64,000 bases of DNA, taken from the sequence record OQ067375.1, one strand, 5' to 3'. The notes beneath the pieces were generated by a model. That model was not told where the DNA came from, made no database searches, and worked only from the letters and a program-made list of their open reading frames with translations. How positions within the stretch are numbered: the first letter of the stretch is position 1; every line of letters starts with the position of its first letter. This DNA is from Escherichia phage a48. Shown piece by piece: positions 40,116 through 49,174 of the stretch. A program made the position numbers and the translations under genes.

Positions 40116-40589
40116 TTATTTGAATGATTTGACGTACTGAATAGAGCCTTTGCTATTCACGAAAGCGATTTTACCATTTTTATTATACATGGTAGCAGTA
40201 CGCTGATAACCATAAGTTTGTTTACCAGATTGATAACCAACTAATGCAAAATTATCTTCGCCCATTTTATTCTGTTTGGCGCGGATACGTTCATGACCGT
40301 GTGCCATAAGAACCTTAGCGTCGCCAGTTGCAATGGATCTACGAGTTTTTTCATCTTCAACCGTATTAACAAAGTCGTCAAATGAATCAAATTTAGCATG
40401 AGATTTATTATACAGTTTTCCATCTACTGCATAATTATATCCCTGTACATCCATCTCAACTTCTGTACCATCATCCAATACAGCAGTGATTTTTTGACCT
40501 TTTTTAAATTTCAAAAGATCAGTAAAAGATTCAGCGATAATTTGAGAATTAATAGCTGCTTCAGTAATAAATTCTTGATATGTTTTCAT
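40116..40589 (-). CDS. internal-protein-like protein with capsid targeting sequence
   Basis: 157-aa ORF starting MKTYQEFITEA (T4 internal-protein targeting signal with protease site after TE); late promoter motif upstream. Confidence 0.6.
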   Translation of the reverse strand: MKTYQEFITEAAINSQIIAESFTDLLKFKKGQKITAVLDDGTEVEMDVQGYNYAVDGKLYNKSHAKFDSFDDFVNTVEDEKTRRSIATGDAKVLMAHGHERIRAKQNKMGEDNFALVGYQSGKQTYGYQRTATMYNKNGKIAFVNSKGSIQYVKSFK

Positions 40590-40598
40590 GTGTTTCCT

Positions 40599-41015
40599 TT
40601 AAATGTAAATATTTTTGCCGTAGTATTTATACCAGTGTGGCTTCATTAAAATTTTTTCATCGAGTCGTTGTTGACTCAATTTAATAGCCGATTTGCATGG
40701 GTTATAATCATTTTTCCATTCTGCTGGAATATCGCTGATGTCAGGAACTTCAGTATCTTTTATACTAAACCCGCGTTTTAAGCATTCCGTTATAATGTCT
40801 GATTGACGCTTTCGCAAAAATTCTAACTTATCATAAAAGAACGTAACATGACCAGAACCTAAAATAAACTCGGAAGATATTTTAAAATCTTTAACCCGCT
40901 TACCATTTGCCACATGTTTACGAACTATACCAAAAACACGTGGCAATTCACGGTATTCTGCGATTAAATGTTGATCAACAAGTTCAGATACTAAAGTCAA
41001 ATTAATACGAGTCAT
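40599..41015 (-). CDS. denV: endonuclease V (pyrimidine-dimer glycosylase)
   Basis: 138-aa [15 protein letters not shown]...[11 protein letters not shown], matches T4 DenV. Confidence 0.93.
40624..40631 (-). promoter_or_regulatory. late promoter (TATAAATA) for the internal-protein-like gene
   Basis: Plus-strand tatttata, i.e. TATAAATA on the minus strand, ~35 nt upstream of the ATG at 40589. Confidence 0.5.
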
Positions 41016-41030
41016 TTTATCCCTCCAAGT

Positions 41031-41060
41031 AATTGTGAATATACTATCACAATTCTAGGA
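41031..41060 (-). promoter_or_regulatory. T4-type early promoter for denV
   Basis: Minus sense GTTTAC ... GTGATAGTAT upstream of denV. Confidence 0.5.
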
Positions 41061-41074
41061 GAAAGTAAACAACT

Positions 41075-41569
41075 TTATAGATTTTTATACGCGTCCCAAG
41101 TGCCAGTTCTAAACGTTGCAATAACTCGTTTTGCGCGGTTAGGTGTTTGATTATACCATCTACTTTTAGCTAAGTTAACTGCTGCTTCATCCCAACGCTT
41201 TTGTTGGAGCATGCGTAAAGAATTAGTAAATCCTGCTACGCCGGTTTCCCCCATTTGGAAGACCATGTTAATCAATGCACAGCGGCGAACAGCATCAAGA
41301 GAATCATAAACTGGTTTTAATTTAGCATTTCTCAGAATTCCGCGAACAGCAGCATCAACATCCTGATTAAAGAGTTTTTCGGCCTCATCTTTTGTAATTA
41401 CACCATTACAATTACGCCCAATAGCTTTATCTAATTCAGATTTAGCAACGCTTAGTGATGGACTTTTAGTAAGCAAATGACCAATGCCAATAGTGTAATA
41501 ACCTTCTGTGTCTTTATAGATTTTAAGTCTAAGACCTTCATCTATACGTAACATTTCAAATATATTCAT
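41075..41569 (-). CDS. e: lysozyme (endolysin)
   Basis: 164-aa [41 protein letters not shown]..., near-identical to T4 lysozyme. Confidence 0.97.
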
Positions 41570-41582
41570 AATACCTCCTAAG

Positions 41583-41603
41583 TATTTATAGAAGGTATTT
41601 ATA
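41583..41603 (-). promoter_or_regulatory. two tandem late promoter motifs upstream of lysozyme gene e
   Basis: Two copies of plus-strand tatttata (41583-41590, 41596-41603) just upstream of the e start at 41569. Confidence 0.55.
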
Positions 41604-41605
41604 AA

Positions 41606-42061
41606 TTAAAAGAGGCTGTTCATTATTCGGTAAAGTGAAGGGCCCATCACATATTGCCACTGAGTACGAGGAATAAGAGCAAAAGCATCCATCTCTGGAA
41701 TCATAACGCCATCTTTATTTTCAAAATAAGACTCGCAATGGCAATTTCTAAACATCTCATGCTCTACTGGAATCGTATAATAAAATAACTGTAAGTCTTT
41801 ATTACTAGAATATTTAAATACACCTAGGTCTTCTAGAAGGTCTGGATTATAATTGCTAAAACCAGTCTCTTCTAAGCATTCTCTTCGTGCTGCATCTAGT
41901 GCGCTTAAATCAGAATTTTCTACGCGGCCCTTTGGAATATCCCAACGATGTGCCATCATTCCAGGCTTACGAGAACCAGTAACCCGACCCATAAATAAAT
42001 CTTTATCTTCTGTCATAAAGATAATACCAGCTGATAATGTTTTCATTTTAATTTCCTGCAT
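41606..42061 (-). CDS. nudE: Nudix hydrolase
   Basis: 151-aa ORF with Nudix box GRVENSDLSALDAARRECLEETGF. Confidence 0.8.
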   Translation of the reverse strand: MQEIKMKTLSAGIIFMTEDKDLFMGRVTGSRKPGMMAHRWDIPKGRVENSDLSALDAARRECLEETGFSNYNPDLLEDLGVFKYSSNKDLQLFYYTIPVEHEMFRNCHCESYFENKDGVMIPEMDAFALIPRTQWQYVMGPSLYRIMNSLF

Positions 42062-47674: not shown

Positions 47675-47962
47675 TTACCATTTATGATGATACGTATTTA
47701 CGATACATTCAAGACACAAAGGATTCTTGAAAATATCATATTCAAGAGGACCTTTTTCTGTTTCAATAAAGAAATCAAAATTTACTGTATTAAATTTACG
47801 GTCTTCCTTCACTAATTTAACTTGAGAAGATGAACGGTCAATGTAAACCTTTTCAACTTCAAAACATGTTAAAATGCCATAATCATCAATCAAGGCTTTA
47901 GCTGCTTCTTGATCATATTTATATCCATTTTCAATGGATGATACTTTCGCATAAAGAATCAT
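47675..47962 (-). CDS. hypothetical protein
   Basis: 95-aa ORF. Confidence 0.45.
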   Translation of the reverse strand: MILYAKVSSIENGYKYDQEAAKALIDDYGILTCFEVEKVYIDRSSSQVKLVKEDRKFNTVNFDFFIETEKGPLEYDIFKNPLCLECIVNTYHHKW

Positions 47963-47964
47963 TA

Positions 47965-48363
47965 TCAGCCTTCATCAACAATAGTGTGAGTATTAGCATT
48001 TACGATTTGCCACCAATCAAAGCGATTAGAATCCATCGGTTTGTTTTCATTTTCTTTGATAATGTCACGGAGTTCATCTTCAGAGAATGCTTTAGCGATT
48101 AAATCGGTATACCCACCACGTGGATAATAATTATCACCTGCAAACAAAAGGAAATTTACCTTCCCGGAAGGAACATACGCTTCCTTAGGATACTTGTTTC
48201 CTGCGTGGTCAACCACTTCAATATAACGGTAAGGAATATCGGTTCTTTCAACCCATTGCCATGCCGCTGCAGGGGAATCGAAAGCATCTACACCTAAACG
48301 ATTATCTTCATCTTTAGACGGATTATTTTCGTAATCCGCATATACATAATATTCAACGTTCAT
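47965..48363 (-). CDS. hypothetical protein
   Basis: 132-aa ORF. Confidence 0.5.
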   Translation of the reverse strand: MNVEYYVYADYENNPSKDEDNRLGVDAFDSPAAAWQWVERTDIPYRYIEVVDHAGNKYPKEAYVPSGKVNFLLFAGDNYYPRGGYTDLIAKAFSEDELRDIIKENENKPMDSNRFDWWQIVNANTHTIVDEG

Positions 48364-48548
48364 TATTCACCTTTAGAAATTTTATCCATAACAATAGCAA
48401 TTAAACCAATTAAAAATGCTACTACAAGTGAAAACACATTTTCTGCTGTAGTCAATAATCCACATATAAATCCAACAAACATTGAAAAACTAAAAGCGGA
48501 AGCAGAAATTGCAATAGCAACATTTCGAATTAATTCACAACGTTTCAT
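48363..48548 (-). CDS. small membrane protein
   Basis: 61-aa hydrophobic ORF downstream of an early promoter. Confidence 0.4.
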   Translation of the reverse strand: MKRCELIRNVAIAISASAFSFSMFVGFICGLLTTAENVFSLVVAFLIGLIAIVMDKISKGE

Positions 48549-48575
48549 TTTATTCTCCTCAGTAGTAGATAGGGT

Positions 48576-48606
48576 AATAGTATCACTACCCTATCTAAAA
48601 GTAAAC
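48576..48606 (-). promoter_or_regulatory. T4-type early promoter
   Basis: taatagtatcac ... gtaaac block (one of three near-identical copies) upstream of ORF 48363..48548. Confidence 0.5.
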
Positions 48607-48840
48607 TTATTTTTTACGAAAAATTGATTTATTTTCTGCTGCCCATTTTTCAATAACTGCAGCAGGACCAGTAACAACAATTTTATCACCGTAATCTTCT
48701 GCGGCGAGTTGACCGAAATTATCTAATGCATCACGAAGAACTCCATGAGGCATTTCACCCATTTTATCTTTCTTGCCAGTGTAAATAAACTCAACTTTTA
48801 CATCAGCAGTTTCAGCAATAAATTCTTGGTAAGTTTTCAT
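48607..48840 (-). CDS. internal-protein-like protein with capsid targeting sequence
   Basis: 77 aa from MKTYQEFIAETADVKVEF (ORF track gives 81 aa with upstream Met); early promoter upstream. Confidence 0.6.
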   Translation of the reverse strand: MKTYQEFIAETADVKVEFIYTGKKDKMGEMPHGVLRDALDNFGQLAAEDYGDKIVVTGPAAVIEKWAAENKSIFRKK

Positions 48841-48872
48841 TTTGATTTCCATTTGGTTTTGTTTTGATAGGG

Positions 48873-48904
48873 TAATAGTATCACAACTAAAACCCTATGT
48901 AAAC
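48873..48904 (-). promoter_or_regulatory. T4-type early promoter
   Basis: taatagtatcac ... gtaaacaactttgtgaaattattttaaatc upstream of the internal-protein-like gene 48607..48840. Confidence 0.5.
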
Positions 48905-48916
48905 AACTTTGTGAAA

Positions 48917-49174
48917 TTATTTTAAATCTTCTAATCGTTTCTTCATCTTAGAACCATTTTTAGCAATTTCTCCTGCATCGGAGCATAATGCTAAAAGTGC
49001 TTTAACTTTAGTTTGGTCTCCTTTAAAAGATGAAGGATCGACCGCAGCAGCAAGTTCTTTAATACGAGAGAAAAGACGCTCAGCTTCAGCTAAAGCCATT
49101 CCAAGCTTTACTTCCATACCGTGGGAAGATTCAGTGATAGTAGTTTTTGTAGCAAACTCTTTGAAAGTTTTCAT
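48917..49174 (-). CDS. internal-protein-like protein with capsid targeting sequence
   Basis: 85-aa ORF MKTFKEFATKTTITE...; occupies the ipI position upstream of 57B. Confidence 0.55.
   Translation of the reverse strand: MKTFKEFATKTTITESSHGMEVKLGMALAEAERLFSRIKELAAAVDPSSFKGDQTKVKALLALCSDAGEIAKNGSKMKKRLEDLK

Follow-up and report, generated by a model that had tools for sequence, protein, structure and literature searches.

Probable internal-protein genes of Escherichia phage a48: Ip4, Ip5, Ip6 and a candidate further family outside the two recognised loci

The three internal proteins (IPs) of phage T4, IPI, IPII and IPIII, are made with a propeptide of 10-19 residues that targets them to the prohead core and is removed by the protease gp21, after which each IP remains in the head in about 360 copies, to be ejected into the host (PMC9026906; PMC3012670). 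For targeting, residues 4 and 7 of this leader are important; for processing, residues 8 and 10 (PMC9026906). T4 Ip1, Ip2 and Ip3 are inhibitors of GmrSD type IV restriction enzymes, each with a different enzyme as its target, and it is by their leader that Ip4, Ip5 and Ip6 of other T-even phages are classed as IPs (PMC12373910). Here we analysed a 64,000-nucleotide stretch of Escherichia phage a48 (OQ067375.1; hereafter the window), in which four open reading frames (ORFs), designated A to D, begin with a leader of this kind. We consider it likely that all four are T-even IP genes, A being Ip4, D Ip5, C Ip6 and B a further, unlabelled family. For A, C and D the observation repeats knowledge from 1994, and B is the only new element. 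The four genes are as follows.

40116..40589, minus strand: ORF A, Ip4 (IpIV) precursor of 157 amino acids; leader MKTYQEFITE, predicted cut after E10
45270..45731, minus strand: ORF B, candidate new internal protein of 153 amino acids, matching phrog_2280; leader MKTYAQFLMTE, predicted cut after E11
48607..48840, minus strand: ORF C, Ip6 (IpVI) precursor of 77 amino acids; leader MKTYQEFIAE; identical to 'ip6' of phage fHoEco02
48917..49174, minus strand: ORF D, Ip5 (IpV) precursor of 85 amino acids; IPI-type leader MKTFKEFATKTTITE

An earlier, sequence-only reading of the window had listed four ORFs at exactly these coordinates, and they are present there, but all four lie on the minus strand, which corrects that reading; read on the plus strand, the same coordinates are rich in stops. 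The order along the minus strand is gp1, 57A, 57B, D, C, trna.4-.2, a tRNA cluster with a segB-like gene, B, e.8 to e.2, nudE, e, denV, A and vs.8, and more than 1,100 T4-like phage records match the region, the best of them 94-97% identical over ~11 kb. Comparison with the starts of T4 IPI, IPII and IPIII bears out the proposed N-terminal targeting signal in each ORF. With a slash marking the predicted cut, the leaders read MKTYQEFITE/A in A, MKTYAQFLMTE/A in B, MKTYQEFIAE/T in C, which has the same leader as T4 IPII and IPIII (MKTYQEFIAE/A), and MKTFKEFATKTTITE/S in D, which is of the type of T4 IPI (MKTFKEFTSTTTPVSTITE/A). The targeting determinants are Y4 and F7 in A, B and C, and F4 and F7 in D. 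As the sequence-only reading proposed, the similarity reaches the protease cleavage motif, (L/I)-x-E followed by a small residue, in A (I-T-E/A), C (I-A-E/T) and D (I-T-E/S); the L-M-T-E of the B allele is atypical. The idea that these ORFs are not real genes, or that their N-terminal similarity arose by chance, has a negligible probability, since starts of the form MKT[YFW] in all six frames of the 64 kb are limited to the four ORFs and one 4-codon chance match, and hundreds of conserved homologs and strong PHROG matches exist for all four. The mature parts are mutually unrelated, as had been noted, and also unrelated to T4 IPI-III, with no significant pairwise similarity and a best BLASTP E-value among them of 0.029 (7-sequence database). 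With each of the four as query, sequence searches of the PDB yielded only chance-level matches, and PADLOC models matched none of them.

ORFs A, C and D are known proteins at known places. ORF A is identical to the T2 'IpIV internal head protein', matches Pfam DUF7412 (PF24183) over its full length (residues 1-157, 319 bits against a cut-off of 27) and also matches phrog_3155, 'internal virion protein'. Its predicted mature part has 147 residues (16.5 kDa, isoelectric point (pI) 9.1), and the phage collection holds 470 matching records, with at least 99% identity in 290 of them and ~69% in Klebsiella phages. ORF D (predicted mature part 70 residues, 7.5 kDa, pI 9.2) is identical to Ip5 of T6 and RB15 and, over 85 of 85 residues, to Bas37_0261. 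ORF C (67 residues, 7.4 kDa, pI 6.5) is 100% identical to genes annotated ip6 (fHoEco02), 98.7% identical to the T6 gene, and identical in 77 of 77 residues to Bas37_0260 (MZ501089), with the C-D spacing likewise identical in Bas37. In the Krisch-lab annotation of PST the D-C pair appears as IpV and IpVI, and the gene beside vs.8 as IpIV. Ip4 beside vs.8 together with Ip5 and Ip6 after 57B is annotated in PST and Sf21, and Ip5 and Ip6 also in T6 and Bas37. Matching records in the phage collection number ~268 for Ip5 (at least 80% identity) and 245 for Ip6, compared with 292 for T4 IPI and 261 for T4 IPIII. The loci are thus 'rearranged', as the sequence-only reading put it, relative to T4 only: the layout of the window is the common T2/T6/PST type, with genes in as many or more records than T4's own.

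ORF B matches phrog_2280, 'unknown function', over its full length (1e-52), and the same profile matches Bas37_0243 (2e-53) and ORF137 of Klebsiella phage KP1079 (1.4e-57). The only protein identical to B is one of Escherichia phage a48. The predicted mature part is small and basic like the T4 IPs (142 residues, 15.7 kDa, pI 9.4), and an AlphaFold2 model (predicted local distance difference test score, pLDDT, 73.8) is all-helical, its N domain of three helices being joined to a helical hairpin by a P/K/A-rich linker. A Foldseek search with this model gave a best E-value above 1 in the PDB and only the protein's own family in BFVD. By tblastn B occurs in 511 phage records; all 40 sampled rows are 'hypothetical' or unannotated, as are all named cluster members, while T4, T6 and PST lack the gene. 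A profile search with the B family among 1.84 billion representative proteins returned 11 at an E-value of 0.001 or below, most of them family members or fragments with the leader or the conserved core and none with a functional annotation.

The strongest argument for B as an internal protein is the conservation of its leader. The body falls to 23-34% identity among Tequatrovirus, Mosigvirus, Jiaodavirus and metagenomic members, and across genera the family keeps the pattern M-x-x-[Y/F]-x-[E/Q]-F-[L/V] with a Glu a few residues later. Only five columns are invariant, M1 and F7 being two of them, position 4 is Y or F, position 8 is L or V, and the leader closes in every case with an E, the next residue being A, S, G or Q, as in MKSYAQFLNEVVLNE/AS, MKSYAEFLTE/QS, MKFKEFLIE/AS, MLKFNEFLAE/G and MISFNEFVDGNLITE/S.

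Compared with T4, the window carries B as a clean insertion of 543 bp that directly follows the tRNA/rnaC terminator, in the interval between this terminator and e.8, and its borders are marked by the following features.

45773..45808, minus strand: upstream copy of a G+C-rich terminator hairpin, left border of the B cassette; at the end of the tRNA/rnaC transcription unit, seen as a direct repeat and in a terminator scan
45768..45775, minus strand: late-promoter-like TATAAATT, 36 nt upstream of the B ATG and directly after the upstream hairpin
45230..45265, minus strand: downstream copy of the terminator hairpin, right border of the B cassette; 78% identical to the upstream copy

Aligned to the window, T4's single hairpin copy is the left flank of one window copy joined to the right flank of the other, and the GenBank note on the RB51 ortholog of B reads 'flanked by 34 bp imperfect direct repeat'. 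At the position corresponding to TATAAATT, where the window has a 4-nt deletion, phages slur14, RB51 and Jiaodavirus KP1079 carry TATAAATA, which matches the late-promoter consensus exactly, and a terminator followed by TATAAAT(A/T) stands upstream of the B family in both Tequatrovirus and Jiaodavirus. No gene of the region differs more between close relatives than B, at 80-82% identity compared with 96-100% for most neighbours; the next most diverged are e.3 and e.4 (42528..43285, minus strand), predicted membrane proteins with 83-90% compared with 96-100% (against Sf21 or Bas37). A second, diverged phrog_2280 gene with the leader MKTYAEFLTE/AA lies beside the B ortholog in Bas37 (5029..5592 of the sampled locus L010) and at the equivalent site in RB69 (13429..13991 of L014); the Bas37 copy is also hairpin-flanked, and the RB69 copy is apparently frameshifted (ORF149c/148c). 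On these sequence features, the B site appears to behave as a cassette hotspot. In the HIDEN-SEQ reference library of Bas37 (bioRxiv 10.1101/2025.11.20.689424), Bas37_0244, which is ~80% identical to B, is scored 'Non-essential', as are Bas37_0260 and Bas37_0261, the proteins identical to C and D; Ips in general are non-essential. Bas37_0243 is scored 'Essential' (1 of 48 TA sites hit), an unexpected score for an accessory cassette and possibly due to the cassette missing from the library stock.

Several points weigh against B as a packaged IP. IP genes have been described as confined to two loci in T-even genomes (Arbiol et al. 2010, PMC2839356); B lies outside both, so that the proposal of the sequence-only reading that all four ORFs sit at IP loci holds for A, C and D and fails for B. 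The window allele has L-M-T-E/A, with Met rather than Leu or Ile at P3, and its cleavage is therefore uncertain; the motifs of its orthologs are V-L-N-E/A, V-L-T-E/A, F-L-T-E/Q, F-L-I-E/A and L-I-T-E/S. We found in the literature neither a published virion proteome covering phrog_2280 nor a mention of RB32ORF132c, nor virion proteomics for any of the four proteins in this phage, and the predicted folds of Ip4 and B matched nothing informative. A leader in this position could also be the relic of an ip 5' end recombined onto an unrelated late gene with a late cytoplasmic role, in which case B would not be a head protein. The leader is a known recombination substrate of ip cassettes, and such an origin would suit the position of B outside the two IP loci, the atypical motif of this allele and the fact that no sampled record names B an Ip. 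A relic would decay, however, yet the leader and its terminal (L/I/M)-x-E plus small residue persist across Tequatrovirus, Mosigvirus, Jiaodavirus and distant metagenomic relatives; moreover, a Bas37 paralog with the canonical MKTYAEFLTE/A adjoins the B ortholog, and the late promoter fits a virion component. We therefore regard a relic leader as an unlikely explanation, though one to be kept in mind, and, judging from the leader, B is probably packaged in the head. The fuller proposal, that phrog_2280 (B and paralogs such as Bas37_0243 and RB69ORF149c) is an unrecognised, widespread family of head-packaged, injected proteins at a third Tevenvirinae IP site, mobilised by hairpin repeats and with its own late promoter, is one that we hold with about even confidence. 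Arbiol et al. cite 'more than 30' IP variants (PMC2839356), and phrog_2280 may already be among them.

The sequence-only reading had also singled out these proteins as candidates for anti-restriction and other counter-defence functions, and C bears this out. According to a 2025 preprint (bioRxiv 10.1101/2025.11.20.689424), the Bas37_0260 protein, encoded at the ipI locus, has the N-terminal signal, and knockout of its gene makes Bas37 specifically McrBC-sensitive. Because ORF C is identical to it in 77 of 77 residues, classical Ip6 is, by sequence, the reported McrBC inhibitor Bas37_0260. The window also carries genes for a beta-glucosyl-HMC-alpha-glucosyltransferase (1195..2043, minus strand; phrog_842, 5e-89) and an alpha-glucosyltransferase (13646..14848, minus strand; PF11440), and these two glucosyltransferases are a DNA glucosylation system of the T2/T6 type. 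Glucosylation of this type leaves part of the hydroxymethylcytosine unglucosylated and hence open to McrBC. An McrBC inhibitor such as Ip6 would fit a phage with this system.

A general counter-defence role is less secure on two counts: the McrBC result comes from a preprint, and Ip4-10 gave no reproducible inhibition of GmrSD variants (PMC12373910). Identity to a member with a demonstrated target holds for C only, and A, B and D resemble no such member beyond the leader. It could accordingly be proposed that Ip4, Ip5 and B have no counter-defence role and are basic head fillers that bind DNA or assist the scaffold, with only IPI-III and Ip6 recruited as inhibitors. T4 IPIII mutants assemble heads more slowly, with a burst ~40% of normal (PMC9026906), IP lysines contact packaged DNA (PMC3012670), Ip4 is unusually conserved, the pI of A, B and D exceeds 9, and the GmrSD result with Ip4-10 points the same way. 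On the other hand, all four of the T-even Ips with an assigned function inhibit type IV restriction, Bas37 can do without its orthologs of B, Ip5 and Ip6 on K-12, and the divergence of B between close relatives is what is expected of an arms-race gene. A purely structural role for these three proteins thus seems improbable to us.

For T4 IPI-III the first four steps of the following scheme are established, and here we infer them from sequence. Each protein would be made with a short N-terminal capsid targeting sequence, whose positions 4 and 7, occupied by aromatic and hydrophobic residues, would dock it onto the prohead scaffolding core. The gp21 prohead protease would then cut after the Glu ending the leader, and the freed, mostly basic mature protein would be kept in the DNA-filled head and injected with the DNA. 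Once in the cell, the injected protein would disarm a nuclease of the host ahead of all phage gene expression. The claim that these proteins are capsid-targeted, processed and injected is the accepted view for A, C and D; for B, which is nowhere annotated as an Ip, it is extended on the strength of the leader.

The ip genes appear to be exchangeable cassettes, which at the classical loci would be bounded by a conserved sequence of ribosome-binding site plus leader and by repeated early-promoter/stem-loop blocks; the B cassette would instead be bounded by the two terminator-hairpin copies and have its own late promoter. A, C and D lie within the two IP loci, the e/denV region and the interval between 57B and trna.4, and B does not. 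At the Ip5/Ip6 locus the block is 71 nt long and present in three copies.

48564..48634, minus strand: early-promoter/stem-loop block, copy 1, downstream of Ip6; 61% identical to the reference copy
48862..48932, minus strand: early-promoter/stem-loop block, copy 2, upstream of Ip6; TTTACA-17-TACTAT; holds the '...DLK-stop' end of Ip5
49193..49263, minus strand: early-promoter/stem-loop block, copy 3, upstream of Ip5 at the end of 57B; 86% identical to copy 2

The C-terminal '...DLK-stop' of Ip5 mimics the end of 57B, and since both genes end in this way each cassette would recreate the junction. The 90-nt stretch ahead of D matches its counterpart ahead of T4 ipI, and blastn gives 97.4% identity over 49140-50998. 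The cassette features at the classical loci are in line with the recombination model that Repoila et al. 1994 put forward and PMC2839356 summarises.

The other classical locus, that of Ip4, contains the following features.

40590..40631, minus strand: 5' boundary of the Ip4 cassette, with ribosome-binding site AGGAAACAC and late-promoter consensus
40624..40631, minus strand: late-promoter consensus TATAAATA in the last denV codons, upstream of Ip4
40599..41015, minus strand: denV, neighbour of ORF A
41016..41074, minus strand: empty e-denV intergenic region of 59 nt, the site of ipIII and ipII in T4
41075..41569, minus strand: e, 59 nt from denV

The absence of a gene between denV and e, where T4 has ipII and ipIII, was correctly noted by the earlier reading, as the 59-nt gap holds no ORF; its statement that an ip gene lies 'before denV' is right in plus-strand coordinates only, and by the direction of transcription A is downstream of denV. 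The leader coding sequence of Ip4 together with the 27 nt upstream of it (40558..40616) is 95% identical to the start region of T4 ipII, and those 27 nt overlap the last codons of denV. The motif TATAAATA falls within the denV Y-K-Y codons, which read TAT AAA TAC in the two genomes with Ip4 downstream, those of this phage and Sf21. Bas37 and ZCEC15 have the same denV allele without Ip4, and there the codons are TAT AAG TAT, synonymous changes that abolish the motif; in these four genomes a tie between the late-promoter motif in denV and a downstream Ip4 is suggestive.

The denV gene itself is a diverged allele, with 77% DNA identity to T4 denV between flanks of ~94-96%, and it ends in GKNIYI here compared with GKAIYA in T4. 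Upstream of T4 ipII (3720..3746 of the T4 locus L003), 18 nt are identical to the 3' end of the window-type, non-T4 denV, an identity that suggests that the ipII cassette formerly lay downstream of a denV of the non-T4 type. RB69 has an Ip5-like protein (4923..5204 of L014; ~47% identity, leader MKTYMNFYQNLSLNE/A) between e and denV, so the same mature Ip5 family would occur at both classical IP loci; Ip5 matches below 60% identity occur in 228 records. Within residues 1-20 of Ip4 (40530..40589, minus strand) there is a second motif, (I/L/M)-x-E/S or A, with an E20 invariant across the Ip4 family, and because of this second conserved site Ip4 may lose 20 residues instead of 10, comparable to the 19-residue leader of T4 IPI. 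A homology between Ip4 and T4 IPII (BLASTP 0.029, hhalign probability 88%) was considered and rejected, since the alignment was confident only in the leader and the next few residues.

At the locus of Ip5 and Ip6, an in-frame ATG four codons upstream of Ip6 (48841..48852, minus strand) gives an 81-residue 'MEIKMKTY...' protein in some database records; as an ATG within the Shine-Dalgarno region (atGGAAAtcaaaATG) that would leave the leader buried, this start is probably mis-called. The 57B gene (49248..49706, minus strand), directly upstream of Ip5 and Ip6, is Acb1, a nuclease directed against cyclic-oligonucleotide-based anti-phage signalling systems (anti-CBASS; PF23474, 2.7e-60), which suggests a clustering of counter-defence genes. 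For one host comparison in HIDEN-SEQ supplementary file 8, insertions in Bas37_0261 (that is, Ip5) were depleted about fourfold (mean 263 to 61, adjusted p shown as 0), and those in 57B/Acb1 of Bas37 about threefold. Between the Ip6 and B genes, nine tRNAs lie at 46122..47577, including a tRNA-Tyr that T4 lacks. The segB-like GIY-YIG ORF (46201..46974, minus strand) has a GTG start as listed and overlaps this tRNA-Tyr (46913..46999); its true start is probably the ATG at 46866, giving 221 amino acids as in T4 SegB.

Proteins injected with the DNA act before phage gene expression and are the first answer to nucleases attacking modified DNA. They help to set host range, which matters for T4-like phages used in therapy. 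Known genes gain two links here, that of Ip6 to the McrBC inhibitor Bas37_0260 and that of Ip6 to a phage with glucosylation of the T2/T6 type. The B family, present in ~500 sequenced phages, has the sequence hallmarks of an IP and no function in databases, and is a candidate for defence-inhibitor screens. If phrog_2280 proteins are indeed Ips, they would contradict the two-locus view and add candidate injected counter-defence effectors.

Compared with T4 IPI-III, the proteins of the window share the N-terminal capsid targeting sequence, with the leader of D a shortened form of the IPI type, and have small, mostly basic mature parts; A, C and D also share the two loci, beside e/denV and after 57B, with matching upstream DNA. 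They differ in their mature sequences, which are unrelated, and in the target where one has been assigned, and none of the four is a T4 IP. The closest counterparts are Ip4, Ip5 and Ip6 of T2, T6, RB15 and PST (Repoila et al. 1994 EMBO J; Krisch-lab annotations), to which A, D and C are identical or nearly so, in the same positions and order. ORF C is likewise identical to Bas37_0260 and has the same neighbours, although the preprint does not use the name Ip6. In PeSL and PeSL-like cassettes (PMC2839356; PMC4122927), short regulatory repeats flank non-essential genes and allow their deletion, insertion or replacement by homologous recombination, and the cassettes of the window would be of this general kind. 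The three 71-nt early-promoter/stem-loop blocks of the window fit the 'PeSL-like' elements described for the IP loci, whereas the border of the B cassette is a G+C-rich terminator hairpin with a late, not an early, promoter, and B stands at a third site, in contrast to the account in the PeSL paper (PMC2839356), which has IP genes nowhere else in T-even genomes.

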